Below, piece after piece: positions 2,734 to 63,333 of a stretch of 64,000 nucleotides of DNA. This DNA is from a virus. Positions within the stretch are counted from its first letter, which is position 1. The number at the start of each line of letters is the position of its first letter. The stretch lies in IMG/VR virus record IMGVR_UViG_3300045988_122538, one strand, 5' to 3'. Position numbers and translations under genes: made by a program. A model generated the notes under the pieces. That model saw only the letters and a list, made by a program, of their open reading frames with translations, ran no database searches and was not told the origin of the DNA.

Positions 2734-2760
2734 ACTATTACATAAGGAGTGATACTAAAA

Positions 2761-4677
2761 ATGACTGAACTCGAACGCAAAATTGAACAAGCTGCTCAGA
2801 AATACTATACAGACGGATCATCTGAATTGACTGATGCAGAGTTTGATGCTCTTATAGATCAGCTTCGTTCTGAAAATCCTGATTCTGAGCTGCTGAAAAC
2901 TGTAGGATGGGGCTACAAAGTGTCTAAAGACAACACACCTGGACAGAAATATATACACAAATATGGCAAGGCTGGTTCTCTTGATAAGGCATATAACTTT
3001 GATGAAATCAACTTAATGCTGACAATGAGTGAAGTCGACATTTCGGCTAAACTTGATGGTTTGAGTGTAGTACTCTATTATGAATCAGGTAAACTTGTAC
3101 AAGCACTTACACGAGGTGATGGTACTTTTGGAATTGATATCACACCGAAAGTAATGAATATCATTGATGGTAAGTTGCAGGATAACTGGTTCTCCGGGGC
3201 GGTACGTGGAGAAATCATCATGTCATATGACAACTTCAAGCGTTTTCAAGAGTTACACCCTGAGGCTAAAAATCCAAGAAATTCAGCTGCAGGTCTTATC
3301 AATAACAAACAAGTTTCAGAAGACCTTCGTTTTGTAGAAATTATTCCGTACTCTGTAGTAGGTATTGAACCTGAAGTACGGACTAATCATGCAGCTGAGT
3401 TTGAAACTATCTTTGCTGTAAGAAAATTCATTGCTCGTAACTTCTCGAAATTTGTTATGGGTAGTAGATCTAGAATTTACAGGGAATCTTATTTAGAAGA
3501 TTTCAGCAAATATTTTGAAGCATGGTCTGCTGAATATCCGATTGACGGACTTGTTCTTACATTACCTAATGTCAATTTAGCTAACAACGGTGAGGTGAAG
3601 CAAGATTCGCAAGCATTCAAATTCAAGTCAGAAGTAGCTAACTCAACGGTAGTTGATATCGAATGGAACATGAGCAAAACTAACTATGCAATTCCTCATG
3701 TAAAGATTGAACCTGTTCAGCTTGCTGGTACAACAGTTCAGTATTGCACCGGATACAACGCACAATATATTTCTGAAAATAATCTTGGTATTGGTGCTGT
3801 TGTTGAAGTTGAGAAACGTGGTGAGATAATTCCGAACATCAATAAGGTCATTGCTGTAAGTAACAGCTGTGAGCTTCCTAAATTCTGTCCTTATTGTAAT
3901 TGTGAATTACGATGGGAAGGTGTGCATCTTGCTTGTAAAAATCCTGCATGTGCTAATGCTACAACACAGGACACTATGATTTGGACTAATATTCTTGCAC
4001 CTGTCGATAATTTAGGAGAATCTCTGAAAGAGAAATTCTTCGTTGAAGCATTTGGAAAGGTTCCTAGTATTGAGATCCTTATGAGAGAGAAACCATCTGC
4101 TTATCAGACAGCACCTGAAGGCACACAAGCATACAGAATGAAACAGATGTTCGATAAGCTGTTCAGCAAAGATAAAGTTGATCTTGTAACTGCTATTAAA
4201 GCCCTTAACATTCCGAGATTTGGAGATGTAACTGCTGCTAAACTTGCTGACTACCCAGAACATGTTAAACGCTTAATAAAAATTGCACTTGATGGTAGTT
4301 GTGCAGATGGTGTTGAAGCTGCAAATCTGTTTGACAAGCTGTCAAAACTGATTGGTGTAGCAAATACAGAATCTTTAGAGCAAAATATGGACATTGTAAC
4401 TCGTTTGCAGTTTATCAATGTAGACTGGTCTGAAAATCGAACATGTGACAACAATGAATCCAAAGGAAAAGTTGCTATTACAGGTAAACTCAGTGTAAAA
4501 CGTTCTGAATTCGAGAAGGAGCTTAAGGCTGCTGGATATGTATCTTCAGAGATTTCAAAAGATACAAAATTTCTCATCACAGATAATCCTAACAGCTCTA
4601 GCTCTAAAAATAAGAAAGCTGATGCTTGGGGAATCGTTAAGATAAGTGAACAACAGTTCAGAAAGGAGTATATGTAA
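2761..4677 (+). CDS. ligA: NAD-dependent DNA ligase
   Basis: N-terminal AAQKYYTDGSSELTDAEFDALIDQL. Adenylation motif SAKLDGLS (KxDG), plus TRGDG and VRGEI. C4 zinc finger CPYCNCEL..CKNPAC. BRCT-like C-terminus KVAITGKL..FLITD. ATG at 2761 preferred over GTG at 2749 because RBS AAGGAG is at 2742-2747. Confidence 0.9.
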   Translation: MTELERKIEQAAQKYYTDGSSELTDAEFDALIDQLRSENPDSELLKTVGWGYKVSKDNTPGQKYIHKYGKAGSLDKAYNFDEINLMLTMSEVDISAKLDGLSVVLYYESGKLVQALTRGDGTFGIDITPKVMNIIDGKLQDNWFSGAVRGEIIMSYDNFKRFQELHPEAKNPRNSAAGLINNKQVSEDLRFVEIIPYSVVGIEPEVRTNHAAEFETIFAVRKFIARNFSKFVMGSRSRIYRESYLEDFSKYFEAWSAEYPIDGLVLTLPNVNLANNGEVKQDSQAFKFKSEVANSTVVDIEWNMSKTNYAIPHVKIEPVQLAGTTVQYCTGYNAQYISENNLGIGAVVEVEKRGEIIPNINKVIAVSNSCELPKFCPYCNCELRWEGVHLACKNPACANATTQDTMIWTNILAPVDNLGESLKEKFFVEAFGKVPSIEILMREKPSAYQTAPEGTQAYRMKQMFDKLFSKDKVDLVTAIKALNIPRFGDVTAAKLADYPEHVKRLIKIALDGSCADGVEAANLFDKLSKLIGVANTESLEQNMDIVTRLQFINVDWSENRTCDNNESKGKVAITGKLSVKRSEFEKELKAAGYVSSEISKDTKFLITDNPNSSSSKNKKADAWGIVKISEQQFRKEYM

Positions 4678-5297: not shown

Positions 5298-5310
5298 GGA
5301 GATATAGCAT

Positions 5311-5619
5311 ATGGATATTAGTAAAAATATGTATATCATAAAGTTGTCTGATATATCTAAAGAAGAAGCGCTCATGATGGTTATCAACACAATGAAAGAG
5401 AATGCAAAACTCAAAACATTATTGATGGCTGCTATAACTGATATAGAGCAACTAAGAAAAATCACATCACATTGTGTAAATCCTAACTTCTGTGCAGCAG
5501 CATTAGAATACAATGTAAATCCGTATGATCTTTGTAATAGCTGCCCTTTGAGCGGATCTACAAAGTGCAAATGGAGATATGATGATGAAGCTAGAAAGGT
5601 ATTAGGATATGAAAAATGA
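5311..5619 (+). CDS. Hypothetical Cys-containing protein
   Basis: RBS TAAGGAG upstream. The C-terminal motif CKWRYDDEARKVLG is shared with the ORF at 7918-8271. Confidence 0.55.
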   Translation: MDISKNMYIIKLSDISKEEALMMVINTMKENAKLKTLLMAAITDIEQLRKITSHCVNPNFCAAALEYNVNPYDLCNSCPLSGSTKCKWRYDDEARKVLGYEK

Positions 5620-5995
5620 CATCTTATTTAGAGGAATTCGTCAAGACAATCATGAATATGTTGAAGGCTATTATTGTAAATATCCTCATAAGTTCAGTGG
5701 ATTCTTGAACGACTATATATTAGTTTTAGAATATGATGCTGAGACAGAAGCAGCTATTTGTATGGCATATCAAGTAGATTCAGAATCGGTAGAACGGTTT
5801 ACAGGAACTAATGATATAGACAACATCAAAATTTTTGAAGGTGATATTGTATCAGCTTATAAGAACAATGATGTGTTATTTACAGAAGTTGTTACATTCA
5901 GAAATGGCTGCTTTTGGTTTGGAAATTGGTCTTGGATTGAATTTCTGAACGTATTCAGACGCATCAAAGTTATTGGAAATACATATACTAGTTGA
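5609..5995 (+). CDS. YopX-like protein
   Basis: Opening FRGIRQDNHEYVEGYY, mid FEGDIV and C-terminal IKVIGNTYT fit the YopX family pattern (FRaW..., GDIv, GNIyen). Confidence 0.55.
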   Translation: MKNDILFRGIRQDNHEYVEGYYCKYPHKFSGFLNDYILVLEYDAETEAAICMAYQVDSESVERFTGTNDIDNIKIFEGDIVSAYKNNDVLFTEVVTFRNGCFWFGNWSWIEFLNVFRRIKVIGNTYTS

Positions 5996-6007
5996 AAGGA
6001 GAGCATT

Positions 6008-6346
6008 ATGGCAAGCATTAAAGAATTGAAGAGGATGTGTAAGTCATTTGAAACATCTTGTAACGGTTGTCCTTTTCAGAATGAAATAGATGGTGGCTGT
6101 TTAATAACAATGTTAGCATATGATTGTTTCCCTGATAACGCTGATGAGATAATTGATAAATGGATGTTAGAACACCCTATAAAAACATACATGCAAGACT
6201 TCTTTGAAAAGTTTCCGGATGCACCAACAAAAGAAAACGGAGCTCCAAAGATTTGTCCTCGATACATATATCCAGGATTAACAAATGACTGTTGTGGAAA
6301 CTGCTTAGAGTGCTGGAGCGTAGAGATGAAAGTAGGTGAAGACTAA
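6008..6346 (+). CDS. Cys-rich small protein, tandem paralogue 1 of 3
   Basis: MASIKELKRMCKS...DNADEIIDKW..EHPIKTYMQDFFEKFPDAP...CLECW. Clearly homologous to the next two ORFs. Confidence 0.65.
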   Translation: MASIKELKRMCKSFETSCNGCPFQNEIDGGCLITMLAYDCFPDNADEIIDKWMLEHPIKTYMQDFFEKFPDAPTKENGAPKICPRYIYPGLTNDCCGNCLECWSVEMKVGED

Positions 6347-6663
6347 TGGCAAGCATTAAAGACTTAAAAAGAATGTGTAAAGCTTATGACGCTTGTATTG
6401 ATTGCCCAATGAGTGAAGCAGGTTGTGCTTCGCCTAATAAGTTCTATGACAACGCTGACGAAATTGTTGACAAGTGGGTATCAGAGCATCCTGTAAGGAC
6501 ATATGCTATGGACTTCTTCGAGAAGTTTCCGAAAGCTCCAAAAGATCCGTCTGGATGTCCAATGCCATGTATTAGGTTGATATATCCTGAAGCTATGGAC
6601 AAGTCTTGCTTAGAATACACGTGCAAGGATTGTTGGAATCAACCTATTCCTGAAGATAAATGA
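6346..6663 (+). CDS. Cys-rich small protein, tandem paralogue 2 of 3
   Basis: MASIKDLKRMCKAY...DNADEIVDKW..EHPVRTYAMDFFEKFPKAP...CKDCW. Start overlaps the previous stop. Confidence 0.65.
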   Translation: MASIKDLKRMCKAYDACIDCPMSEAGCASPNKFYDNADEIVDKWVSEHPVRTYAMDFFEKFPKAPKDPSGCPMPCIRLIYPEAMDKSCLEYTCKDCWNQPIPEDK

Positions 6664-6688
6664 TTTGAATTAGAAAGGATGAGTGCAA

Positions 6689-7012
6689 ATGAGTAGCATC
6701 AAGGACTTAAAGCGTATGTGCAGATGCCACGAGGAGTGCAATAACTGCCCTTTATTTATTGGAGGTTTTGCACAATGTAACCCAGATGATTTTCCTGATA
6801 ATGTTGATGAACTTATTGACAATTGGGTTCAAGAAAACCCTGTAAAGACGTACGCTTTGGATTTTCTCACGAAACTTCCAAATGCACCACAGATGGATAG
6901 AGATAAAATACCTAAAGTTTGTAGAAGTCTTATTTATGGTGGCATCTGTCCTAAACAATGCAATATAGTGTCAAGTTGTGTTGACTGTTGGAACATGGAG
7001 ATGGAAGAATAA
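6689..7012 (+). CDS. Cys-rich small protein, tandem paralogue 3 of 3
   Basis: MSSIKDLKRMCRCH...DNVDELIDNW..ENPVKTYALDFLTKLPNAP...CVDCW. ATG at 6689 chosen by alignment with the paralogues; the track start is 6683. Confidence 0.65.
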   Translation: MSSIKDLKRMCRCHEECNNCPLFIGGFAQCNPDDFPDNVDELIDNWVQENPVKTYALDFLTKLPNAPQMDRDKIPKVCRSLIYGGICPKQCNIVSSCVDCWNMEMEE

Positions 7013-7257
7013 TGACTTGTGTTGTATGTGATAAATGCGGAAAACCTATTCCATATGTCAAAAAGAGAAATCCCTTTGGAATTGAAGAAACGGTACTTGA
7101 TAGAGGAGTAGTAAGAAGTTCTGAATGGCGAATTGATACACTGTTTTATGAGTATGATTTATGTAAAAGCTGTGCAGATAATGTTTCATTGCAAGCCGAT
7201 AATCTATTTCTAAGGATGAAATTAGCAGTACTAAAGGAGGCAAATAGAGATGATTGA
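7012..7257 (+). CDS. Small zinc-ribbon protein
   Basis: MTCVVCDKCGKP...CKSCAD gives two CxxC pairs. ATG at 7012 overlaps the upstream stop. Confidence 0.5.
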   Translation: MTCVVCDKCGKPIPYVKKRNPFGIEETVLDRGVVRSSEWRIDTLFYEYDLCKSCADNVSLQADNLFLRMKLAVLKEANRDD

Positions 7258-7393
7258 AAAATTAAAACATCTATACGAGATGATATTCAAATTACACTGT
7301 CCAGAATGCAATTGTGTAATGGACTGTGAAGGATTATGTGAGTTTGATAAGCTAATTTACAAATGCCATGGTTGCGGAAAGGTGTGGATTTGA
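7250..7393 (+). CDS. Small Cys-rich protein (47 aa, not in the ORF track)
   Basis: Hand translation: MIEKLKHLYEMIFKLHCPECNCVMDCEGLCEFDKLIYKCHGCGKVWI. RBS AAAGGAGG at 7234-7241. Fills the 7257-7396 gap. Confidence 0.45.
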   Translation: MIEKLKHLYEMIFKLHCPECNCVMDCEGLCEFDKLIYKCHGCGKVWI

Positions 7394-7395
7394 GT

Positions 7396-7626
7396 ATGCC
7401 CGAATTAAAACCCTGTCCGTTCTGCGGCAGCACAAAACTAAAGATTGAAAGCAAGCGTACTTTCAACTACGGTAAAAAACATTGTTCTGTCACGGTAAGA
7501 TGTATGAAATGTCATGCACGAAGTCCAGTTGTTGGAATCAATGTGGACAATAATCAGTACAATGAGCGTGAACTTTGTGAATCACAAGTAACGGAAGCTT
7601 GGAACAGGAGGAAAGACAATGGATAA
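7396..7626 (+). CDS. Lar-family restriction alleviation protein
   Basis: MPELKPCPFCGSTK...RCMKCHARSP...VTEAWNRR matches the Lar family signature (KPCPFCG ... CxxC ... AWNRR). Confidence 0.65.
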   Translation: MPELKPCPFCGSTKLKIESKRTFNYGKKHCSVTVRCMKCHARSPVVGINVDNNQYNERELCESQVTEAWNRRKDNG

Positions 7627-7921
7627 ATTGATTGACGGTCTTGCAATGCTACATTTTTTCAATCAGCGAGCAGGTCGAGAGCTTTGGCAAAATAAGCCAA
7701 AAGAAGTACAGAATCATGACATATTTACTGCTGATGAAATTTTAAGCAAAGCGATTCAGAAGCTTGAAGAGGTACGGCCTGTTGTCCATGCTGAGTGGGT
7801 ATGTCATGAATCAGAAATCGGGCTTTATTATTCATGTTCCAGATGCGGACATAACGCATTGCAAGGAATGTATAAGTTCTGCCCTAACTGTGGTGCAAAG
7901 ATGGACGGTGATGCAGAATGA
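7619..7921 (+). CDS. Hypothetical protein with C-terminal zinc ribbon
   Basis: C-terminus CSRCGHNALQGMYKFCPNCGAKMDG. Paralogous C-terminus in the ORF at 8264-8590. Confidence 0.55.
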   Translation: MDKLIDGLAMLHFFNQRAGRELWQNKPKEVQNHDIFTADEILSKAIQKLEEVRPVVHAEWVCHESEIGLYYSCSRCGHNALQGMYKFCPNCGAKMDGDAE

Positions 7922-8271
7922 CAATTGATGAAGCAATAAAGGTACTCAGACAGCATAACGTAACAAATATGCCAGTATTGAGAATCACAAAAGGACAGGC
8001 ATTAGAAAAAGAACTGCTTGCACAGGTATTAGATAGCTGTGAACAGCTTATTTCCGAAAAAGCTGAATACAAGCGGCTTCTGAAAGAGGCAGTTTCAATA
8101 ATCAACAATTCTTTTCCAGAAGTTAGTAGTTGCTGGGGCTGTGCGAACTATGATAAAGTAAATGACGAATGTAAAGGTGATTATTTTGCGGAATGTGCTG
8201 AGGTGTGCAAGTGGGAACACGCAGACGAAGCCCTCGCACTTATCGGGGAGGACGGTGATACAAATGGCTGA
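7918..8271 (+). CDS. Hypothetical Cys-rich protein
   Basis: Start overlaps the upstream stop. The C-terminus CAEVCKWEHADEALALIG resembles that of the ORF at 5311-5619. Confidence 0.55.
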   Translation: MTIDEAIKVLRQHNVTNMPVLRITKGQALEKELLAQVLDSCEQLISEKAEYKRLLKEAVSIINNSFPEVSSCWGCANYDKVNDECKGDYFAECAEVCKWEHADEALALIGEDGDTNG

Positions 8272-11184: not shown

Positions 11185-13590
11185 TTGGAGGTGATACAAT
11201 TGCATAGCATTAAAATTCCAGATACGTGTCAAGAAATAACTGTAGGTAGCGTTGTTATTTTGAGTAGATTTCCGGATACTAAATGGGTACTACAGGATGG
11301 TTGGTACATGTATGAAGGTCAACAATATAATGGTTGGTATTTTAGCTCTATACCAGCTCAAACTATTTTACCACTTCAAGGTACAGATCTATTAGGACTT
11401 GTAATAGTATCAGGAGGTTCATGCAAGCCAATTCCACACCCACCTTGCCCGTGTCCAGGTCCAACTCCGAGTCCAACTCAGCCAAGATCTGTTGAAAAAT
11501 ATATGCAAGGTGTGAATTACGTTGAAGGTCAGCTTGTATGGCTTGAGACTGGGGTAATTTATCAAGTTGTATCTGATTTTCGTTCAAGTTCTACTTCGGA
11601 ATCAGCGTCAGAAGACTTGAAATTAGATGTTACAGCTGGAAAGCTTATTCCTATTTCATCAGATATTACATCTGTAGGTAGTATCAGCTTGTATATCAAT
11701 TTCAAAGAAGTATTTGGAACTGCTAATCCCGAAAAATCTAATGCTGATGCTTATCTTGCTACGTTTGATCCACCGATTGTACCGTCTGACGGTATACAAT
11801 TTGTAAATTCTGATAAAACAGCTGCTACATTTGGTACTGTATATCAATATATGAGAGTTCCAGGTTCAGATGAACTTATATTTCAAGCAATTTTAGGTTT
11901 GAAAGGTGATATAGGCCCAGAAGGACCTCAAGGGAAACCTGGAAATGATGGGAAATCTGCATATCAGTGCTGGTTAGATGCTGGAAATACTGGTTCTGAG
12001 ACTGATTTCTTGAATTCATTGAAAGGTGAAAATGGAGAACCAGGTAAAGACGGTACAAATGGTGTAGACGGTACAGATGGACAAGACGGTCAACCTGGTA
12101 AATCTGCATATGAAATTGCAGTAGACGCTGGATACGAAGGTAGTAAAGAAGCATGGCTTGCATCCTTAAAAGGTGAGCCAGGTCCTCAAGGTATTCAAGG
12201 CGAACAAGGTATTCAAGGTCCTCAAGGTGTTCAAGGTCCTCAAGGTGTTCAAGGTTCATCTGGTTCTGATGGTCTATCTGCATATGAAGTCGCACGTAAA
12301 AATAGTTATACCGGTTCTGAGTCTGAATGGTTGAGTAGCTTGAAGGGCGATATCGGTGAAACTGGTCCTCAAGGACCTAAGGGCGATACTGGTGATTCTG
12401 GTTCTAAAGGCGATACTGGTGAAACTGGTCCTCAGGGTGAACCTGGTAGTGATGGTGTATCTGTAACTAATGCTGTTGTAAATGAGTCTGGTCACTTGAT
12501 TATATCATTAAGCAATAGTCAAACATTAGATGCAGGTTATGTTAAAGGTGCAGATGGTACTTCTATAAATATCAAAGGTGATCTTAACTCTACTTCTGAA
12601 CTTCCAAGTTCTGGACAGCAACTAGGAGATTGTTATCTCATATCAGGTGATTTATGGGTTTATACTGGTAGCACAGAATCTGGATCAATAAATGGATTCA
12701 AGAATGCAGGGACAATTCAAGGACCAGCAGGTAGAGGAATTTCATCTGTAGCTGTAAATAGCAGCGGACAACTTGTAGTAACTTATTCTGACAGCACTTC
12801 TGACAATTTAGGAAAAGTTGTAGGTGACAACGGTAAATCTGCATACCAAATTGCAGTAGATGGTGGTTATGACGGATCTGAATCTGACTGGATAGCTTCA
12901 CTTAAGGGTGAAAAGGGTGATTCTGGTGATAAAGGTCCTCAAGGCGATCCTGGTACCGATGGTAAAAATGGTGATAACGGACAATCTGCATATCAAATAT
13001 GGCTGTCACTTGGAAACACTGGTACTGAATCTGATTTTATTGCTTCATTGAAAGGCGAACAAGGTATCCAAGGTGTTCAAGGTGAACAAGGCGTTCAAGG
13101 TGAGCAAGGAATTCAAGGTGAGTCTGGAGCTGATGGACGTAGTATTGTTAAGATAGTATTCAAAAGCAGCTCTACAGGTAGCAGTGCTGGGACGGCCGGT
13201 GCTATAGATACTTATGAAATAACATACTCAGATAATACTACATCTGAATTCCAGATAAAGAATGGTGAACAAGGACCTCAAGGTGTACCAGGTTCAGAAG
13301 GACCATCCGGTGTTGGAATTTCAAGCGTAACATTTACATCTAGTACAGGTGGGGATACAGCAGGAATAGCTGGAGCTACAGATACTTACACAATCACATT
13401 TACAGACAATACAACTTCAACATTTGTTGTACACAATGGTGCAGATGGTAGTGGCAGCATTATCATAGATTCTGCAATGAGCGATACAAGCGGTAACACA
13501 GTTGAAAACCGAGTTATCAAAAAATATGTTGATGATATTGTAGGCAATATACAGTCTGTATTATCTACTGTTGTGGAGGTGACTGAATAA
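11185..13590 (+). CDS. Collagen-like repeat tail fibre protein
   Basis: Long G-X-Y runs (GPQGIQGEQGIQGPQGVQGPQGVQG and others). These alternate with five copies of a phage-fibre repeat, SAY(E/Q)IAV..G(Y/N).GSE.(D/E)W(L/I)ASLKG(E/D), and with repeated beta-rich modules. The start codon (TTG) is uncertain. Confidence 0.8.
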   Translation: MEVIQLHSIKIPDTCQEITVGSVVILSRFPDTKWVLQDGWYMYEGQQYNGWYFSSIPAQTILPLQGTDLLGLVIVSGGSCKPIPHPPCPCPGPTPSPTQPRSVEKYMQGVNYVEGQLVWLETGVIYQVVSDFRSSSTSESASEDLKLDVTAGKLIPISSDITSVGSISLYINFKEVFGTANPEKSNADAYLATFDPPIVPSDGIQFVNSDKTAATFGTVYQYMRVPGSDELIFQAILGLKGDIGPEGPQGKPGNDGKSAYQCWLDAGNTGSETDFLNSLKGENGEPGKDGTNGVDGTDGQDGQPGKSAYEIAVDAGYEGSKEAWLASLKGEPGPQGIQGEQGIQGPQGVQGPQGVQGSSGSDGLSAYEVARKNSYTGSESEWLSSLKGDIGETGPQGPKGDTGDSGSKGDTGETGPQGEPGSDGVSVTNAVVNESGHLIISLSNSQTLDAGYVKGADGTSINIKGDLNSTSELPSSGQQLGDCYLISGDLWVYTGSTESGSINGFKNAGTIQGPAGRGISSVAVNSSGQLVVTYSDSTSDNLGKVVGDNGKSAYQIAVDGGYDGSESDWIASLKGEKGDSGDKGPQGDPGTDGKNGDNGQSAYQIWLSLGNTGTESDFIASLKGEQGIQGVQGEQGVQGEQGIQGESGADGRSIVKIVFKSSSTGSSAGTAGAIDTYEITYSDNTTSEFQIKNGEQGPQGVPGSEGPSGVGISSVTFTSSTGGDTAGIAGATDTYTITFTDNTTSTFVVHNGADGSGSIIIDSAMSDTSGNTVENRVIKKYVDDIVGNIQSVLSTVVEVTE

Positions 13591-55052: not shown

Positions 55053-55823
55053 ATGAAAGCAATATTTGCATGTAAGCTTTATAAATCAAGTAGACGTAAG
55101 GACAAAATAAAAGCAGCATTACAGAATCCTATAAATGCTGAGCTTGTAGAACAGATAGATGAATATCTAGGTGAAGAATATAGACCTGTAACTAAAATTG
55201 ACGGTGACGTCATGAAAACTGTTCCTAAACATGATAATAAATCAGGTTCATCTAATACACAAACAAGGTCAAGTGGTCATGGTCCTTCAAGTGGTGGACT
55301 AGGTGGTTTAAGTTCTGCATTATCTGGTCTAGACGATGATACTACCATATCGGAAAAATATGGTGACGAATTAGATGATGATGGAAATGCTGCATTTGAT
55401 GCTACTCAGGGTACAAGTTCGTCTGATGATGACACTTCTGATGATAATTCTGATACTACAGCAAATTCAGCTACAGCAGTGAAGAAATCATCTATCGTTG
55501 CTGATACAGTTGTAACTAAACCGTTTGTTGAAACACAAGTTTCCTTAAATGGTCTTGCAGGTGAACTTAAGGGAACATTGAATGCACGGTCATCGACTAC
55601 CGGTGTAAATCGTGTATGCGTAAAGAACAATGAGATATGGATTCATTATAATGATGATATCAATCTTAACAATGTTATGACTGCTGTAATAGACACATTG
55701 AATTCAGCAAATTATCATTACTTGATATTCAATCGTCTAGCAAGAACAGATAATGCAATTGTTTTTACAATCAACGGTAATGATACAGATAATGTGATGG
55801 AGCCGATATCTAATGAAAAATGA
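55053..55823 (+). CDS. Hypothetical protein with a low-complexity Gly/Ser/Asp centre
   Basis: 256-aa ORF. RBS GAAGGAGGT upstream. Confidence 0.55.
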   Translation: MKAIFACKLYKSSRRKDKIKAALQNPINAELVEQIDEYLGEEYRPVTKIDGDVMKTVPKHDNKSGSSNTQTRSSGHGPSSGGLGGLSSALSGLDDDTTISEKYGDELDDDGNAAFDATQGTSSSDDDTSDDNSDTTANSATAVKKSSIVADTVVTKPFVETQVSLNGLAGELKGTLNARSSTTGVNRVCVKNNEIWIHYNDDINLNNVMTAVIDTLNSANYHYLIFNRLARTDNAIVFTINGNDTDNVMEPISNEK

Positions 55824-56845: not shown

Positions 56846-57361
56846 ATGGACGATATCAAAACTGTTGATAGTTCAGAAGTAGTGTATGATCCTGTATACC
56901 AACGACAAAAAGAGGGCGTCACGAAAATGCGTACGTCCTTGTTGGCGTGTACTGCTGAAAACGGTGTTACTATAAGAAACACATTAGATTCAATAACAGC
57001 TATGCGAATATATCATCAGATGATGCGTATAATCAAATATACAGAGTTGATGGATAAGCTTGAAGATAAGCTTTACAGGTCCATTGATAATATGTTAGAT
57101 AACTCTCCCGATGATGAACGAACTCTATTATCACTCTTACATATTCAAGAGCGTTTACAAAAGTCAATGATTGAATCTCATAAATTGATTCAGCCATATC
57201 TTGATATAAAAGAGTTTTCAGTTGTTGATCTTGTACCTCAAGAGTCTACAGCTGCTTCTAGTACTCAGTTTAACATGAAGTCTGAGGATCGTGATAGATT
57301 GCGTTCTAATGCTCAACAAGTTCTACTTCAATTAAAGGAAGGTGGGCTAGTTGCAAAATAA
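56846..57361 (+). CDS. Hypothetical protein (small terminase subunit possible by position only)
   Basis: 171-aa helical ORF immediately upstream of, and overlapping, TerL. Confidence 0.4.
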   Translation: MDDIKTVDSSEVVYDPVYQRQKEGVTKMRTSLLACTAENGVTIRNTLDSITAMRIYHQMMRIIKYTELMDKLEDKLYRSIDNMLDNSPDDERTLLSLLHIQERLQKSMIESHKLIQPYLDIKEFSVVDLVPQESTAASSTQFNMKSEDRDRLRSNAQQVLLQLKEGGLVAK

Positions 57362-59306
57362 CATCACAGATCTATCGCTACCTGAAAGAATTCAAAAGAT
57401 ATTTTCGAGCTGTAATGAAGTAGAACAGTCATACTTGCTTCAAATTCTAGAAGAATTGAGTGAGTCGGATTGTGGATACTCTAAAACATATGAAGACATA
57501 TGGTTATCTGATTACAAAGAGATACCAGTAGACATTGACACATTCTTAGATTCTGAAACATATCTAGGAAAAACTAACAGATGCGGTAAGGCTGTATTTC
57601 CATTTTGGCGTACAGAGTTGAGGAACTTCTTCAATGCTGGTAATCAATTTCATGAATGGATTCTAACAGGAGCTACTCGTATTGGTAAATCATCTACTGG
57701 TATATCAGCAACATCATACATGTTGTATAGATTGATGTGTTTGCGAGATCCTCAAAAATACTTCAATAAGAAAGACGTATCTAAGTTTTCTATACTGTTT
57801 TTCAACATTACAAAAGACTTGGCAAAGGGTGTAGCTTATCGTGAATTCAATGATACATTGAAAGCAAGCCCTTGGTTCAATGCACACGGAACCTTTTCTA
57901 GTAGTGAAAGAGATTTCTACTATATACCAGAGGGTGGAAAGATAATCATAGATTATGGTTCAGACGCTTCACATGGTCTAGGACAACAGGTATTTGTTGG
58001 GTTCATGGATGAGTGTAACTTCAGCAAAGCAGGTGTTAAAGACGTTAACAAAGCAAAATCACATATGAAAGAAACTTACAACACAATATCAGCCCGTGTT
58101 AAAGGTACATTTAAGCATGGTGGTGAAGTATTCGGAAAGATATTCGCTGTAAGCTCTAAACGTAGTGATAGTGATTTCATGGAAGCTTATGTGCAAGAGC
58201 AGTTAGATGCTGGTGCAGGCGATCATATGTATATATCTGATGCACCTCAGTGGGAAGTACTTCCTAAAGATACATTTGCAAGTGAAACATTCTACATTGC
58301 AGTTGGTGACAGATATCATAAGGGTTTTGTAGTACCTGATAATCAATGTTTTCCTGAAGCACTTGATGATTTACGAAAGCAAGGTTATAAAATACTGGAA
58401 CCACCAGTTGATATGAAATCTGATTTCTTAGCTGACTTTGAGATTGCATTGAGAGATCTTGCTGGTATTGCAGTAACAGGTGCATTGTCTTTCATAACAC
58501 AAGCAGCTATAACTCCTTGTATTTCTAAGACTCGAAAAAATCCTTTCTATTCTGATATTTTAGAAATTGGTACAAAGGATAATTTCAGTATCGAAGAATT
58601 TTTCCATATGAAAGAAGTTCCACCTGAACTCAAACGAATACCTATATTTATACATCTTGACTTGTCACTTACTACTGACCGAACAGGTATATCAGGCGGT
58701 GGTATAACAGGTCGTAAAGATATTGTAAATAAGGATGGTGCTAAAGTATCAATGCCGTTCTTATCGCATCTGTTTTCAGTAGCTATTCAAGCTCCAAGAG
58801 GTGATAAGATTGCATATGGTAAAATAGTTGCATTTATATGTTGGTTGCGTAAATCTGGATTCCATATTGAGCGTATAAGTCGAGATCAATTTCAAAGTGA
58901 ATATCTTGCACAAGAGCTTGAACAAAAGGGCTTCACAGTAGATAAGATATCACTTGATAGAACGTCAGACGGATACACAGCATTACGTTCTGTATTGTTA
59001 GAAGAGCGTATAGATCAACTTGATCATAAACTTCTACAAGATGAACTTGTACATCTACAGCGAGATAGTGTAACTGATAGAGTAGACCACCCTGCCGGCG
59101 GTAGTAAGGATGTTGCTGATAGTCATGCAGGTTGGGTATGGAACGCAATACGTCATAATCCAGGAATTACTATTCCAGCTAAAAAGGTTGTATCAGCAAT
59201 AGCAGCTGTCAACCAAAATACTAATCGTCAACGTGGGGCAACTCTTCCGAGTATGTTCCCTGGATTGAATACAATCAATACGTCTAAAAACAAATTCAAA
59301 CGATGA
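57351..59306 (+). CDS. terL: Terminase large subunit
   Basis: Walker A LTGATRIGKSS, Walker B VFVGFMDECNF. C-terminal nuclease-type acidic motifs IHLDLSLTTDRTGISG and DHPAGGSKDVADS. 651 aa. TTG start. Confidence 0.8.
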   Translation: MQNNITDLSLPERIQKIFSSCNEVEQSYLLQILEELSESDCGYSKTYEDIWLSDYKEIPVDIDTFLDSETYLGKTNRCGKAVFPFWRTELRNFFNAGNQFHEWILTGATRIGKSSTGISATSYMLYRLMCLRDPQKYFNKKDVSKFSILFFNITKDLAKGVAYREFNDTLKASPWFNAHGTFSSSERDFYYIPEGGKIIIDYGSDASHGLGQQVFVGFMDECNFSKAGVKDVNKAKSHMKETYNTISARVKGTFKHGGEVFGKIFAVSSKRSDSDFMEAYVQEQLDAGAGDHMYISDAPQWEVLPKDTFASETFYIAVGDRYHKGFVVPDNQCFPEALDDLRKQGYKILEPPVDMKSDFLADFEIALRDLAGIAVTGALSFITQAAITPCISKTRKNPFYSDILEIGTKDNFSIEEFFHMKEVPPELKRIPIFIHLDLSLTTDRTGISGGGITGRKDIVNKDGAKVSMPFLSHLFSVAIQAPRGDKIAYGKIVAFICWLRKSGFHIERISRDQFQSEYLAQELEQKGFTVDKISLDRTSDGYTALRSVLLEERIDQLDHKLLQDELVHLQRDSVTDRVDHPAGGSKDVADSHAGWVWNAIRHNPGITIPAKKVVSAIAAVNQNTNRQRGATLPSMFPGLNTINTSKNKFKR

Positions 59307-60892
59307 AAGGTATGATTACTATGAAAATGAGAAACCTTCTCAAACCCGGAGATTTTGTAACCTTAGTTCCTGCTGGTATACACATTACACTTCAGTACAA
59401 TGCTGAAGGTAATCTTGAAAAAGTATACACAGGATTTCAGTCAGATAGGGTTGACTGTTCTAATGAATTGCGTACTTTATTGGTTCAGAATCATACAGTA
59501 CCAGGTACTGTGCACATCAAAAGAGGTACAAGTTGGGTACGTGGTGTGCTATATACAAATGCTGTACAAAATGCACCTGGCAAGCTTCCAGCTTGTATTC
59601 AACAGTCATTGATGAAATTGTATCATTCAAATCCGTCGCAATTCAATTTCTTTGCAGCTACATTTGAAAGTACAATGACTGATTTCAAAGGAGCTACTCC
59701 TACTCGTCATGCACTGTCTATGTCAAAGTTTAAGCTGCTGCCAGGTTGGCTTGTTCCTGGTAATGTTACAGATAATTTGACTGACACATGGGTAAATAGC
59801 CCACAGTTTACGTTCAATAAGATAGTAACTGATTACATTATCTTTCACAGAGGCAAAGTGAATTATCTATCTGCTAATTCTTCACAGTTCATTGTCAATA
59901 AAGTAGTTAGATATACAGACGATAATGGATATGTTAAGGGTAGAATTTATCAAGACGTAAAAAGTCCTATCAGTGTTGATTATTCTGATATTGTACGTTT
60001 TGATATACAGCCTAATACACTAGTTGTATTAGATTCCGAAAATCAGATAATGCTTACTAAACCTACTGATAATAAAAAGCGTGATAAAAGATCTCGTACT
60101 ATTACTTGTAAGTATTGTGGTAAGTCTTATCAATCACCTTTATTTGGTACAGTTCAATGCCCAGATACACATTGCGTATCAAAGATGCTTCCTAATATCA
60201 GACAGTTCTTATCAAAACTGAATTTAACAGTTCCATCTAATGAAGAAATTCATAAGTGGTTAGAAGATAAAACTATCCTGTGTATACCCGATATCTTATT
60301 ACTTCCAGATTATCAACATTTGCAGATAGAGGTATCATTATCATCTCTATTACGTGCAATAGTACCAATTTCTGCTGTTCCTAGAGATGATATATTTGTT
60401 CTGTTTGCAAATGCATGCACAAACAATGCTAGAACAATGCGTTATTATGTTACTAATCCTGCACTCATTACTGCAGATTTAGGGCTAAATCATGCTGATT
60501 TGCCGAAATTGCTAAATTGGTTCAACGATAATTGCAATGCATCTGATGTTCAATCTTTACTAGATGCACCTCAATTCATTTTCAAGGACAAAGATAAACG
60601 TTTTGACGGACCGCCTATCTTCCGTAACAAAGTAATCTTCTTGACTGGTGATTTTATAAGAGGTAATTTTGCTGAAATCTCAGCTATCCTCCAAAGTTAT
60701 TCAGCAAGAGTAACTCTACAATTCACAGATGATGTTCATTGTGTACTTATTGGTGGTAAGCATGAAAACATTGACGGTAGAGCAATCAATGCTGCACACA
60801 ATTTAGGTATATCTGTTATGCAAGAAGAGGATTTCTTCAAGTATTATCAAATTGATGAAGACCTCAAAGCGAACCTTGTATATAAACAGTAA
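59303..60892 (+). CDS. LigA-like protein lacking the adenylation catalytic residues (pseudo-ligase)
   Basis: LVPAGIHITLQYNAEGNLEKVYTGFQS and WVRGV align by eye to SAKLDGLSVVLYYESGKLVQALTRGDG and VRGE of the ligase at 2761. However, KxDG, TRGDG and RGE are all replaced. It retains a C4 zinc finger (CKYCGKS...CPDTHC) and a BRCT-like C-terminus (VIFLTGDF...HCVLIGGK). The start is ambiguous (ATGs at 59303, 59312, 59321, 59327). Confidence 0.55.
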   Translation: MKGMITMKMRNLLKPGDFVTLVPAGIHITLQYNAEGNLEKVYTGFQSDRVDCSNELRTLLVQNHTVPGTVHIKRGTSWVRGVLYTNAVQNAPGKLPACIQQSLMKLYHSNPSQFNFFAATFESTMTDFKGATPTRHALSMSKFKLLPGWLVPGNVTDNLTDTWVNSPQFTFNKIVTDYIIFHRGKVNYLSANSSQFIVNKVVRYTDDNGYVKGRIYQDVKSPISVDYSDIVRFDIQPNTLVVLDSENQIMLTKPTDNKKRDKRSRTITCKYCGKSYQSPLFGTVQCPDTHCVSKMLPNIRQFLSKLNLTVPSNEEIHKWLEDKTILCIPDILLLPDYQHLQIEVSLSSLLRAIVPISAVPRDDIFVLFANACTNNARTMRYYVTNPALITADLGLNHADLPKLLNWFNDNCNASDVQSLLDAPQFIFKDKDKRFDGPPIFRNKVIFLTGDFIRGNFAEISAILQSYSARVTLQFTDDVHCVLIGGKHENIDGRAINAAHNLGISVMQEEDFFKYYQIDEDLKANLVYKQ

Positions 60893-60904
60893 GGAGTGAT
60901 ATTG

Positions 60905-62395
60905 ATGTCAAGAATTGTTGATAGATTGTTAAGACGTGGTAAGAAGTACAACAAGACAGTATCGTGGCTCCGTAATGTTACATCAGGATCATTCCTGAAA
61001 ATGTCAGATTTACGTGGTGCTACAAGTATTGATGATATAAAGACTAAAATTGATACAATGCGTGCTTTAGCAAAGGATTCTCAGATAAGCACAGCATTGT
61101 CGTATTATGCTACAGATGCTACTACAACAAATACGAAGGGTCAAATTATATGGGCAGATTCTAAAGATAAGAATTGTGCAAACATTATAAATGGACTTTT
61201 CAAACGATGGAATGTAAATATGTATGTTCGAGATCATATACTTGAACTTGCTACTATTGGTAATTTCTATATGCCAACTACTTGGATGTATAATGCACCT
61301 TCTAAACAAACCATTCATGTTGGAGTAGGGCTTGATAACAATACTATCCCTGATGATAAGTATGACATTATTCCAGCTTATATGATACCACCTGAAGATA
61401 TTATTCATATTTGGTATCAAGGTAAGCCACAAGGTTATATTTATCAGCCTGAGGATGGTGTACAAGACTATATTTCATATCCTGAGGATGCTGTTATACA
61501 CTTCTCATTAGGCGGATTATTAGGTGAGTATACAATTGATACTCGTAATTCTGACGGTGATGAAGAAACATTTGATATTCAATTTGCTGAACCTCTTATG
61601 AGTAATGCCGTATCTCCTACACAGACATTAAGTTTGTTGGAGGACTCATTGTTGTTAGCTTCTTTGATAAGAACTATTAAGTTCATAAATGTAGATTGTC
61701 AAGACGCTGAGGAAGAAGAAGTTCAAGATATACTTCAGCGTATGAAGGATATTGTTGAACAGCAGATTTCTATAAATACTGCTACAGGTGATGCTCAAAG
61801 TTTCGTCAATCCACAAAGTCCTAACAATCTTGTTTACTTAGCAAAGGTAAACGGAAATGATGCTATATCTGTAACTGATCTTAACATGGCAGAAGCTACT
61901 GAAGCTGATAATAAATTGCTTGATTACTATCAGAACAAGAAGCTATCTGTACTCGGTGTTCCAAAGGAAGCGATGAACTTCTCTTCTGCAGAGGGTCTAG
62001 GTAATGCAGGTACTGTAATGTCACAGCGTTCTGCTCTTTATGCTAACATCTTAAATCGTCTTATGACTGCATATAAAGAGGGATGGCGTACAGCTCTTAA
62101 TGCTTATTTCAAAGTAAACGGTTACAGCGGATATGTTGATAACTTTGAACTTCACATGAATCCTATAGTTACAACACAGTCTACTGTACAATTTGAAAAG
62201 CGAGATGCTGCATTGAACCAAGCAACTACACTTGTACAGCTACTCAGAGATACAGGAGTTAGTCATAAAGAAGCTTATACAATAGCACTTACTGAGATAC
62301 TTTCAGAGGTATTTCCTCAGATTGGTTCTGATATACCTACTTGGGACATAGCTTCAGAAGCAACAGGAGAAGGAGGCGGCGATGATGTTCTCTAA
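60905..62395 (+). CDS. Putative portal protein
   Basis: About 497 aa, in the packaging module downstream of TerL, with an acidic C-terminus. Assigned by size and position, not by motif. ATG at 60905 lies 8 nt after AAGGAG. Confidence 0.45.
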   Translation: MSRIVDRLLRRGKKYNKTVSWLRNVTSGSFLKMSDLRGATSIDDIKTKIDTMRALAKDSQISTALSYYATDATTTNTKGQIIWADSKDKNCANIINGLFKRWNVNMYVRDHILELATIGNFYMPTTWMYNAPSKQTIHVGVGLDNNTIPDDKYDIIPAYMIPPEDIIHIWYQGKPQGYIYQPEDGVQDYISYPEDAVIHFSLGGLLGEYTIDTRNSDGDEETFDIQFAEPLMSNAVSPTQTLSLLEDSLLLASLIRTIKFINVDCQDAEEEEVQDILQRMKDIVEQQISINTATGDAQSFVNPQSPNNLVYLAKVNGNDAISVTDLNMAEATEADNKLLDYYQNKKLSVLGVPKEAMNFSSAEGLGNAGTVMSQRSALYANILNRLMTAYKEGWRTALNAYFKVNGYSGYVDNFELHMNPIVTTQSTVQFEKRDAALNQATTLVQLLRDTGVSHKEAYTIALTEILSEVFPQIGSDIPTWDIASEATGEGGGDDVL

Positions 62396-62747
62396 TCCTA
62401 AATTATTATCACATCAGTTCTTCAGTGAATTGAAGCAATACAATAGTACAAACTTCAAAGCTCTTCATACTGCACAACTTACAGAAGATGACCCTGTAAT
62501 TATGAAGGCATTTAGTAGTGTTATCACACGATTCTTTATCTTTTGTGAAAAGCATCCTGAGTTGTCTGAAACTGAGCGTAGAATGCTTTATTTTCAGTTA
62601 AAGGTGGATATGATAGCTCGTTTCTTCTCTAACTATCCAAATACAAATACTGATGATTTAGTAGCATTTCAAACTGAATTGCGTTACTTTGTTAAAGAAA
62701 ATGAAAACGGTGGTGATAAAAATGCTGAGTCAGCCATTGCAGTATAA
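62382..62747 (+). CDS. Hypothetical protein
   Basis: 121-aa ORF overlapping the upstream stop. Confidence 0.5.
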   Translation: MMFSNPKLLSHQFFSELKQYNSTNFKALHTAQLTEDDPVIMKAFSSVITRFFIFCEKHPELSETERRMLYFQLKVDMIARFFSNYPNTNTDDLVAFQTELRYFVKENENGGDKNAESAIAV

Positions 62748-63333
62748 CATCTCAGATTGGCATCAGTTATCTGATGCCAAATCTAATAATAGTAGAGATT
62801 TGAGTATCTCTGTTTCTGATATCATACAGGATGCTAGGCTTACTGGACTTAGAATTCAATTAAATCATACTCAATTTGGTGTGCTATTTGCTTGTGTATT
62901 GAACGCACAGGGTAGTATGGTTACAGAATTCAATGAAAATCTTGTTGTTGAATTTACTACAAAACAGATTCTTGCTGAGCTTAAGAAATACGGTTTCTTG
63001 ATTACGTTTGAACCTAGGGCACATCTTCCCGGTAATCAGATTCAATATCTAATGACATTAAAGGGACTAGGCTATGATAAGCTCAGAATAATGAATGTTT
63101 ATAAGTACAACATTCAAGGAACAAAACAATTTCAGTGGTATGTTATAGCATTCAATATTCATGATGAAAATTGGCTTAATAATGGATATTCAATTTCAGA
63201 GACTGAATTCATGAAAGCTCTTAAAGATGGTAGATGCATAAATATATCTGCTATTAGTAAGACTCAAAGATGGTCATGGAGTTGGTTAGACTATGTAGCT
63301 AACATTGATGACATATTGGAGGATAACGCATGA
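62722..63333 (+). CDS. Hypothetical protein
   Basis: In-frame ATG at 62722 within track ORF 62689-63333. Confidence 0.5.
   Translation: MLSQPLQYNISDWHQLSDAKSNNSRDLSISVSDIIQDARLTGLRIQLNHTQFGVLFACVLNAQGSMVTEFNENLVVEFTTKQILAELKKYGFLITFEPRAHLPGNQIQYLMTLKGLGYDKLRIMNVYKYNIQGTKQFQWYVIAFNIHDENWLNNGYSISETEFMKALKDGRCINISAISKTQRWSWSWLDYVANIDDILEDNA

Follow-up and report, generated by a model that had tools for sequence, protein, structure and literature searches.

In NAD-dependent DNA ligase (LigA), domain Ia binds the NMN part of NAD+ and four helix-hairpin-helix (HhH) motifs grip the DNA backbone through their glycine hairpins. Pseudo-enzymes that retain the fold of a DNA enzyme are rare and informative. 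A precedent comes from poxviruses, in which vaccinia A20 and its MPXV counterpart A22 carry an inactive ligase domain that acts as a structural bridge in the polymerase holoenzyme (10.1101/2023.09.03.556150). There a replication machine relies structurally on a dead ligase domain. The LigA chain has also been rearranged in a phage-specific way, in the PR1 heterodimeric split ligase of T5-like phages (9HU3, 9I5I).

Here we analyse a window of 64,000 nucleotides of viral DNA (IMG/VR record IMGVR_UViG_3300045988_122538), in which a gene lying between terminase and portal was originally predicted, from the letters alone, to encode a catalytically dead relative of the phage's own LigA. To our knowledge, the packaging machine requires no more than terminase and portal, and we know of no phage for which a ligase-derived class of packaging accessory has been described. 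Our analysis supports the view that this protein, which we call pLig, is derived from LigA and would be unable to self-adenylate. A whole five-domain LigA chain without its chemistry is kept intact between terminase and portal across a very diverse clade, beside a working LigA.

The pLig gene, its neighbours and its family

The open reading frame of pLig was confirmed at 59303-60892 on the + strand (529 aa) and is supported by homologue clusters and an AF2 model. Its true start may be ATG 59321 (M7), the start used by most homologues, which has AAAGG 10 nt upstream. The preceding gene encodes the large terminase (TerL, 57351..59306, + strand), recognised through the PHROG terminase large subunit families and by tblastn to annotated phage TerL at 30-36% identity, and its stop overlaps the start of pLig via ATGA. 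The following gene encodes a T4-type portal (60896..62395, + strand; Pfam Portal_T4 E 5e-13 and PHROG portal) that probably starts at ATG 60905, with GGAG immediately 3' of the pLig stop. Given the ATGA overlap, and since no terminator-like site was found on the + strand between 55000 and 64000, pLig appears to share an operon with TerL and the portal gene.

The terminase small subunit is a small oligomeric DNA-recognition protein whose gene sits beside TerL. In the window its usual position, directly upstream of TerL, is taken by a separate ORF of 171 aa (56846..57361, + strand) that overlaps the TerL start and keeps its place ahead of TerL in all related loci, at 32-85% identity. This ORF matched no family in PHROGs or NCBIfam, and it is a candidate small terminase solely by position and size. 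The same role was ruled out for pLig, a protein of 529 aa with a LigA fold that matches no small-terminase family in Pfam or PHROGs.

At 50% identity the pLig family falls into about 255 clusters, of which 206 have E <= 1e-30; 101 full-length homologue clusters were also counted. Its members lie near 520 aa, within 506-554 aa apart from a few shorter entries. So many clusters of near-uniform length argue for a real, constrained gene. Its carriers are uncultured phages of anaerobic Clostridia from gut and rumen, 80-250 kb in size, which make up a large clade; every member examined has the gene. A relative in the chromosome of Ruminococcus callidus ATCC 27760, a cultured strain, offers an experimental entry point.

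Across related phages the order small-terminase candidate, TerL, pLig, portal is found in every locus examined that has flanks (sets of 55 loci, 2 more, 70 of 70 portal-anchored loci and 5 genome loci) and is kept even where TerL has inteins. This fixed position, together with the start that overlaps the TerL stop, suggests that pLig is made together with the packaging proteins. However, Bacillus HSE3 and Maribacter Colly_1, the cultured phages with the nearest TerL, package without a pLig-like gene, so terminases and portals of this type do not generally require pLig.

Compared with the window, pLig averages 36.6% identity as against 58.7% and 62.2% for TerL and portal, and it ranks below both in 118 of 118 loci. 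Such fast evolution is no less characteristic of host-interaction or accessory proteins than of motor components. T4 gp2 and the MuF- or portal-fused effectors are analogues for ejected proteins that protect genome ends or counter host defences, and pLig could likewise be a virion protein, carried in the head or at the portal and ejected with the DNA. It does evolve faster than its neighbours, as host-facing proteins are expected to do, and its gene lies within the head block and adjoins the portal gene. We nevertheless hold this to be quite unlikely: pLig has no sign of a signal peptide, capsid targeting or a protease site, it resembles no known ejection or end-protection protein in PHROGs, Pfam or NCBIfam, and the loss of DNA-binding-motif residues described below also counts against end binding.

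Fold and catalytic motifs of pLig

The AF2 model of pLig has a pLDDT of 88.7 and a pTM of 0.69, and the LigA fold expected from the original prediction is what it recovers. Full-length LigA structures were matched by Foldseek with E 2.7e-19 to 1.4e-10, across about 500-600 columns. Further matches were adenylation-only fragments of LigA and, with probability 0.90-1.00 over about 260-330 columns, the ATP ligases of ASFV, T4, Prochlorococcus, archaea and human as well as mRNA capping enzymes. These adenylation-only, ATP-ligase and capping-enzyme matches can involve only the N-terminal part, in which the model contains, at fold level, the nucleotidyltransferase (NTase) plus OB pair that defines the covalent nucleotidyltransferase superfamily. 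A BFVD structure search had the same outcome as Foldseek against the PDB.

The chain opens with a compact NTase-like domain (aa 8-172; 59324..59818, + strand), delimited by Foldseek and hhalign, with no domain Ia ahead of it and all catalytic motifs lost; in Foldseek it aligns with the adenylation-domain-only structures 4lh7, 3bac and 1tae over about 200 columns at E ~1e-4. Its strongly conserved stretches are VPxGxxxTLQY, GNLEKVY, GTTWVxGVLYT and FNFFA, and predicted strands 26-32 and 37-43 span ITLQY..NLEKVYT. An OB-fold-like domain follows (aa 173-256; 59819..60070, + strand), placed there by beta strands 175-254 of the model and by hhalign to the LigA OB domain, although Pfam DNA_ligase_OB found no match in pLig. 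The C4 zinc finger (C269, C272, C286 and C291; 60107..60175, + strand) is present in 228 of 228 sequences; hhalign pairs its cysteines with C380, C383, C396 and C401 of LigA, and they also align to the zinc fingers of 1dgs and 2owo. In place of the four HhH motifs stands an acidic helical region of the expected size (aa 296-430; 60188..60592, + strand), with helices at 296-420 in the model.

The best conserved part of pLig is its BRCT domain (aa 437-512; 60611..60838, + strand). Pfam BRCT detects it at E 3.4e-4 with 21.2 bits, a borderline value against the cut-off of 21.3, and is precomputed for many homologues; the family profile matches the LigA BRCT structure 1l7b at E 1.4e-4, and the region matches TIGR00575 positions 545-652. 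Within it T448 is conserved in 98% and G449, Y466, G484, E508 and F512 in 100% of members (n=228). A conserved acidic and hydrophobic tail, Y515-x-I517-D518-x-D520-L-x-x-N-L (60839..60889, + strand), ends the protein. Its key residues are found in 91% (Y515), 97% (I517), 91% (D518) and 98% (D520) of the same 228 sequences, and a helix is predicted at 517-525 with declining pLDDT; the tail is a candidate partner-binding peptide. Thus the ligase scaffold first recognised by eye, from a strand pattern, a C4 zinc finger and a BRCT-like C-terminus, is borne out in each of these elements.

Pairwise BLASTP between pLig and the window's LigA gave no match. The two are joined by hhalign, in which a profile of 228 pLig sequences aligns with the phage LigA family at a probability of 95.1% and E 3.2e-8, colinear from 24-515 against 103-641, and the pLig profile matches PDB LigA at E ~1e-6. 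Their relationship is therefore visible only at the level of profile and structure. On curated LigA models pLig stays below the cut-offs (TIGR00575, E 5.5e-10 and 38.3 bits against 444; NF005932, 25.6 bits against 369). That pLig is a paralogue, in the strict sense of a duplicate of the phage's own LigA, could not be demonstrated, the divergence being too great to trace.

The same alignment places V22, P23, A24 and G25 of pLig opposite K101, L, D103 and G104 of LigA, so that KLDG has become VPAG, and sets VRG-V82 opposite VRG-E155 of motif III; both pairs agree with the by-eye reading. The loss of motif Ia, TRGDG, was likewise read correctly, with a register one residue off: TGFQS had been proposed, and hhalign gives YTGFQ, with T43 at R122. 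Among the 228 members, position 22 is V in 145, I in 44, L in 15, M in 14, A in 7, S in 2 and E in 1, and Lys in none. The counterpart of D103 is V, I, L or A, that of R122 is T, L or I, and that of E155 is V in 191 of 228. The NPRN loop is lost, and hhalign finds no aligned counterpart in pLig of motif IV (DGxV; D266, G267) or motif V (AxKF/AFKF; A289-F292). LigA residues 1-86, domain Ia, are wholly unaligned, Pfam PF01653 is not matched, and pLig begins about 15 residues ahead of the motif I strand.

A replacement nucleophile was looked for throughout the protein. No position is Lys in at least 85% of the 228 members (K40 is Lys in only 74% and R, S, N or H in others), and no His is conserved at that level. 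Since no Lys stands at the nucleophile position and none is conserved elsewhere, pLig would be unable to self-adenylate, as originally predicted from the motifs, and covalent enzyme-NMP formation is predicted to be negative. The strong conservation of the NTase-like domain indicates that it is under selection, and split LigA is known in phages (PR1, 9hu3, 9i5i); one might hence suppose a ligase or nucleotidyltransferase with a non-canonical nucleophile or a lysine supplied by a partner. The lack of any Lys or His conserved at 85% or more, the absence of motifs I, III, IV, V and domain Ia, and an N-terminal pLig profile that, run against 1.84 billion representatives, brought up no active ligase make such an enzyme exceedingly improbable. 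The family alignment thus shows pLig to be a protein that would act through binding, not catalysis.

Active LigA, residues of the DNA-binding motifs and the likely role of pLig

The phage has its own catalytically intact LigA (2749..4677, + strand; Pfam DNA_ligase_aden, OB and BRCT; TIGR00575 273 bits), for which ATG 2761 agrees with homologue starts. KLDG, TRGDG and VRGE are all readable in it, in line with the original prediction of a bona fide enzyme at 2761-4677, and the invariants of its phage family are K101, D103, G104, R122, E155 and K291. Nick sealing itself would be left to this enzyme. LigA and pLig occur together on at least 27 IMG/VR contigs and in 'Siphoviridae sp. ctgN495', and LigA is present wherever this could be checked.

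The phage also encodes its own Pol A, DnaB-type helicase and RecA. With this set of proteins, and with LigA wherever checkable, the gene position could be incidental, and pLig might serve replication or repair as a scaffold, recruiting or regulating LigA, the clamp or recombination proteins; the inactive ligase domain of the poxvirus processivity factor, a structural match (8wpf_B), would be a parallel. We consider this improbable, because TerL and portal flank the gene in every locus examined, whereas the replication block lies about 55 kb distant. Its start, moreover, overlaps the TerL stop, and linkage this strict over such divergence is unexpected for a replication factor.

The residues that active phage LigA keeps invariant in its DNA-binding motifs are largely replaced in the hhalign comparison. 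The LigA family invariants R177 and N178 have become E/D and C; K310 and K356 of the OB domain E/D and S; R490 of the HhH region is hydrophobic; and the hairpin glycines G423, G492 and G536 are P, hydrophobic and D. In the BRCT domain R585 is hydrophobic and K620 is A/S. The HhH-like region has a mean net charge of -5.8, and across the entire protein basic residues reach 70% of members at only 9 positions. The BRCT domain has a basic pattern of its own, R441 (94%), H/R453 (96%) and K/R499 (75%). Because most family-conserved residues of the DNA-binding motifs are lost, nick binding in the manner of LigA is not supported, and neither is this part of the original prediction, a nick- or end-binding pseudo-enzyme.

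That all five LigA-like domains are kept in order argues that a DNA-encircling shape still matters, which is at odds with the loss of conserved residues in the DNA-binding motifs. Nicks and gaps block T4-type motors (PMC3012670), and a sensor of nicks on the motor side would be biologically sensible. One could accordingly picture pLig as still a LigA-like clamp on nicks or 5'-phosphate ends that does not seal them, and that senses or shields nicks with the terminase or protects concatemer ends from host exonuclease between headful cuts. The retention of domain order and sizes across more than 250 clusters is most simply accounted for by use of the C-shaped, DNA-encircling geometry; the zinc finger is invariant, the TG turn of the BRCT domain is conserved at 98-100%, and the BRCT domain retains the basic residues given above. 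However, the replaced LigA invariants, the few basic positions and the acidic HhH-like region speak against such a clamp, and a dead ligase on a nick would obstruct the real LigA. We judge it unlikely.

With the conserved residues of the DNA-binding motifs gone, and with the zinc finger, the acidic tail and a remodelled turn of the BRCT domain invariant, an adaptor or scaffold is the most likely mode of action. We favour, with moderate confidence, a non-catalytic adaptor or scaffold, a LigA-derived pseudo-enzyme working with the packaging and head-initiation proteins. pLig would be a LigA chain minus the NAD-binding domain Ia, with the residues for lysine adenylation and nick sealing gone, and synteny suggests that it is made alongside these proteins and is most likely their partner. 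Two candidate contact surfaces can be named: a partner, be it the portal, the terminase, a DNA end or a replication protein, may be held by the BRCT domain together with the zinc finger and the tail, and the rigid ligase-shaped body may serve as a spacer or clamp. A role in packaging or head assembly is our best guess, drawn entirely from gene position: of the packaging or regulatory function first proposed, synteny sustains the tie to packaging or head assembly, and the LigA-type binding of nicks or ends is not supported.

More tentatively, and with considerable doubt, pLig could be a dedicated third component of the packaging machine, a ligase-shaped clamp or adaptor by which the terminase is coupled to the portal or to concatemer DNA that is replicating or nicked. 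It might, for example, form a checkpoint that passes nicks to the active LigA before the motor stalls. If pLig does act at the packaging motor, it would represent a new kind of accessory factor, with a bearing on how headful motors face nicked DNA.

Comparison with known ligases and ligase-like proteins

LigA (PF01653+PF03120+PF00533; TIGR00575; 2OWO, 1DGS, 1V9P) has, from the NTase domain onward, the same order of NTase, OB (OB-fold-like in pLig), C4 zinc finger, helical HhH region and BRCT as pLig, and the two have in common the four cysteines and the TG, E, F and Y residues of the BRCT domain. Unlike LigA, pLig lacks domain Ia, the Lys nucleophile, the Asp of KxDG, the Arg of TRGDG, the Glu of motif III, the NPRN loop, motifs IV and V, the HhH hairpin glycines and an equivalent of R490. 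Its NTase domain is about 165 aa long as against about 220 in LigA, and its gene belongs to the packaging operon whereas that of LigA lies in the replication block.

Poxvirus A20/A22 resembles pLig as a viral ligase fold of catalytic subdomain plus OB, enzymatically inactive in A20/A22 and devoid of the catalytic residues in pLig. The processivity factor 8wpf_B is a Foldseek match to pLig at E 6.9e-6, and processivity factors were also matched in BFVD. However, A20/A22 contains only the NTase+OB core, set between unrelated terminal domains, and has no zinc finger, HhH or BRCT; it serves replication in a eukaryotic virus whereas pLig belongs to a phage packaging operon, and the two have no detectable sequence relationship.

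Subunit B of the PR1 ligase (Zn-HhH-BRCT) matches the C-terminal half of pLig by both sequence and structure. According to its entry titles the PR1 enzyme was solved on nicked DNA with the phage nick sequence, whereas pLig is unsplit and its catalytic residues are absent. Two database entries are true members of the pLig family: A0A8S5UC97 of Siphoviridae sp. ctgN495, called 'BRCT domain-containing protein', and A0A8S5UEV8 of Siphoviridae sp. ctX5W26, called 'DNA ligase' (515 aa, TM 0.73-0.78 and 29-33% identity in BFVD). These names are automatic only, and if the present analysis is right the label 'DNA ligase' on entries of the pLig family is probably wrong.

A LigA-derived fold without the catalytic apparatus

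The pseudo-ligase, a 529-aa protein that the ORF listing places at 59303-60892 (+), has a LigA-derived fold. The same window encodes an active LigA, an NAD-dependent DNA ligase (2749/2761-4677; Pfam adenylation, OB and BRCT domains; TIGR00575, 273 bits). The kinship is detectable by profiles or structure, the sequence alone being nearly silent: pairwise BLASTP between the two proteins gives no match, single-sequence phmmer against the PDB returns nothing significant (best E 1.4), Pfam reports only a borderline BRCT domain, and the PHROG matches to NAD ligases, located at the zinc finger and BRCT, are weak. A profile from 52 of the 101 full-length homologue clusters matches the LigA structures 1dgs, 2owo and 5tt5 (E ~1e-6); the matched parts are the zinc finger, the beginning of the HhH region and the BRCT domain. 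The AlphaFold2 model made from the homologue alignment is confident (mean pLDDT 88.7, pTM 0.69), and Foldseek aligns it over ~500-600 columns with full-length LigA structures in the PDB (E 2.7e-19 to 1.4e-10) and over ~200 columns, at an rmsd of ~5.3 Å, with structures of the LigA adenylation domain only (4lh7, 3bac, 1tae, 3jsn). ATP-dependent ligases (ASFV, T4, Prochlorococcus, archaeal, human LIG4) and mRNA capping enzymes are matched as well; since these have only the NTase+OB core in common with the pseudo-ligase, its N-terminal half shows the covalent-nucleotidyltransferase fold in its own right, regardless of the C-terminal half. A structure search of BFVD ranks its matches as the PDB search does.

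The catalytic apparatus is absent from this fold. The reference for the hhalign comparisons was an alignment of 43 LigA sequences of this phage lineage. The N-terminal halves alone align weakly (probability 10.6%, E 0.003) and a first comparison covers residues 127-520 against LigA 216-638 (probability 91%); motif I enters the confident alignment only with a 228-sequence full-length profile, which pairs residues 24-515 with LigA 103-641 (probability 95.1%, E 3.2e-8, local) and reproduces the by-eye motif match of the original prediction. The motif I nucleophile K101 corresponds to V22, a position occupied in the family by V (145), I (44), L (15), M (14), A (7), S (2) and E (1), never by Lys. 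D103 becomes A24 (V/I/L in the family) and G104 is kept as G25. R122 of TRGDG is replaced by T43 (T/L/I in the family), E155 of VRGE by V82 (V in 191 of 228 members) and the NPRN loop by L95, A97 and C98, while motif IV (D266, G267), motif V (AFKF, 289-292) and domain Ia (1-86) have no counterpart. Of the positions conserved at 90% or more in the active LigA family, 125 are aligned, and 26 of these persist in the pseudo-ligase: the four cysteines, structural glycines and hydrophobics, and TG, E, F and Y of the BRCT domain.

The predicted loss of catalysis also withstood a search across the 228 members for an alternative conserved Lys nucleophile. Because no position anywhere in the family reaches 85% Lys, and the best candidate, K40, is Lys in just 74% of members and R, S, N, H or T elsewhere, a lysyl-AMP mechanism is, as judged from these sequences, ruled out across the family. 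That the nucleotidyltransferase fold retains some residual enzymology is in our view very improbable.

The active LigA family has a peculiarity of its own. Its motif IV reads DGxVx(T/S), with T in 35 and S in 8 of the 43 sequences (aa 266-271 in the LigA of the window), and all its other catalytic residues are invariant. The same motif in E. coli LigA is DGVVIK, of which the Lys is important. The T/S may be an active-site variation particular to this lineage.

DNA-binding residues and conserved regions

The original prediction also proposed that the pseudo-ligase binds nicks or ends. Plain retention of nick binding is argued against by the 228-sequence alignment, in which E/D and S stand in place of the LigA OB residues K310 and K356, a hydrophobic residue in place of HhH R490, and P, a hydrophobic residue and D in place of the hairpin glycines G423, G492 and G536. 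In the BRCT domain, R585 and K620, which like the TG turn never vary in the active LigA family, are replaced by hydrophobic residues and A/S. The HhH-like region is acidic, with a mean net charge of -5.8, and only nine positions in the family are at least 70% basic.

The most conserved parts include the zinc finger, the helical residues D330, P355, C372, Y381-Y382, W406 and N412, the BRCT stretches FDGAPIFRxKxIxxTGxFxHG and ILQSYSA, and the C-terminal tail Y-x-I-D-x-D-L-x-x-N-L. From their conservation we read these elements as a putative remodelled binding module, whose ligand may be a protein or a DNA end. With residues of the LigA DNA-binding motifs replaced as they are, we hold it rather unlikely that the protein is, within or beside an adaptor function, a true clamp on nicks or ends.

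Gene order, distribution and hosts

The pseudo-ligase is strictly linked to the large terminase (TerL) and the portal. TerL, at 57351-59306, matches PHROG large-terminase families and is 30-36% identical to annotated phage TerL proteins; the portal ORF at 60896-62395 matches Pfam Portal_T4 (E 4.9e-13). The TerL stop overlaps the pseudo-ligase start (ATGA), a GGAG for the portal directly follows the pseudo-ligase stop, no terminator-like sites lie between the three genes, and their products are probably co-translated. The real start may be 59321, because the equivalent of M7 is the start used in most homologues. Three further ORFs are kept in every related locus: a candidate TerS of 171 aa, whose ORF (56846-57361) overlaps the start of TerL, and ORFs of 121 and 214 aa after the portal (62382-63333). 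None of the three has a match in PHROGs or NCBIfam. The 214-aa ORF has the same size as the T4 gp21-type prohead protease. Upstream of the packaging genes, a 256-aa ORF (55053-55823) has a long, acidic, low-complexity middle rich in Ser, Asp and Gly.

The order TerS candidate, TerL, pseudo-ligase, portal and two conserved small ORFs recurs in three Logan/JGI contigs (101-220 kb, 31-47% identity), in 55 of 55 tabulated IMG/VR and related loci, in two more loci, in five genome loci and in all 70 portal-anchored loci with enough flank, these sets overlapping in some contigs. Portal anchoring, which reached the less distant portals, found no clade member without the pseudo-ligase in the 70 loci. 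TerL inteins leave the order intact, and the TerL gene is a hot spot of mobile insertion adjoining a fixed pseudo-ligase. In five related loci from other genomes or contigs (L001, where it lies at 4750-7947, L016, L017, L030 and L051), TerL measures 783-1065 aa, with Intein_splicing matches among them, and HNH/NUMOD4 homing-endonuclease genes lie near TerL in several relatives. The pseudo-ligase as a mobile insertion of this kind was rejected, since it is universal in the clade.

Within the trio the pseudo-ligase evolves fastest, with the lowest identity to the window in 118 of 118 loci (mean 36.6%, against 58.7% for TerL and 62.2% for the portal), and its whole chain is under purifying selection. 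It coexists with a working ligase, the two occurring together in 27 or more IMG/VR contigs. Other genes of the window code for NrdD, ThyX, Pol A, a DnaB-type helicase and RecA; that the pseudo-ligase is a scaffold for replication or repair, its gene position being incidental, appears improbable beside so uniform a gene order. Among these genes, with ThyX upstream and the DnaB helicase and Pol A downstream, stands an 801-aa ORF with collagen triple-helix repeats (11185-13590; Pfam Collagen, E 4e-28), a possible fibre-like structural protein. At 6008-7012, three tandem paralogous ORFs of ~105-112 aa share the Cys-rich pattern MASIKxLKRMC...CxxC...DNADEIxDKW...FFEKFP...CxxCW.

The family is discrete, diverse and uniform in architecture. 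When a profile built on the first 258 residues was run against 1.84 billion representatives, 255 proteins were matched at E <= 1e-3 and 206 of these at E <= 1e-30; among the matches listed, lengths are 506-554 aa, a few shorter entries aside. This search returned the family only, with no bridge to active ligases, no other architecture and no intermediate with an intact lysine. The pseudo-ligase as a decaying pseudogene was rejected, the family being large, full-length and constrained.

A tblastn search of 50,697 GenBank phage records gave no match, which leaves no homologue or annotation from a cultured phage as a guide; BFVD holds two members, both uncultured-virus entries, named 'BRCT domain-containing protein' and 'DNA ligase'. 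A genome scan found relatives in Ruminococcus and Clostridia MAGs and, flanked by TerL and portal, one of 47% identity (locus L219) in the complete chromosome of a cultured strain, Ruminococcus callidus ATCC 27760 (NZ_CP186925.1, about 1,511,465-1,519,027). This cluster points to a prophage integrated there, from a lineage whose other known members come from metagenomes only, and to Ruminococcus as a host of the clade. The 773-aa ORF at 86-2407, read by eye as a class III anaerobic ribonucleotide reductase (NrdD-like) with the C-terminal glycyl-radical motif RRITGY, fits an obligate-anaerobe host.

Proposed role and known systems

We propose, at about even confidence, that the pseudo-ligase is a non-catalytic adaptor in packaging or head assembly. 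It would act late, alongside packaging and head-initiation proteins. The conserved BRCT, zinc finger and tail would make up its binding end, and the body, shaped like a ligase, would serve as a spacer or clamp. A replacement for TerS was rejected, since a separate TerS candidate exists. A virion or ejected protein, encoded as it is next to the portal, seems unlikely to us.

The plausibility of the adaptor role is supported by two published findings: in the poxvirus polymerase holoenzyme an inactive ligase domain acts as a bridge (10.1101/2023.09.03.556150), and T4 terminase is loaded via adaptor contacts with gp55, its translocation being blocked by nicks and gaps (PMC3012670). The pseudo-ligase is missing from the cultured phages nearest by TerL: Bacillus HSE3 has the portal directly after TerL, and Maribacter Colly_1 carries an unrelated 194-aa ORF in its place. 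Literature searches on split or two-subunit LigA, heterodimeric phage ligases and BRCT/ligase-like proteins in packaging modules turned up no paper describing the family, and the surveys they yielded of viral NAD-dependent ligases and jumbo-phage core genes make no mention of an inactive LigA in a packaging module. Poxviruses already furnish the concept of a pseudo-ligase scaffold; new here are the whole LigA chain, its setting in phage packaging and its fixation across the clade.
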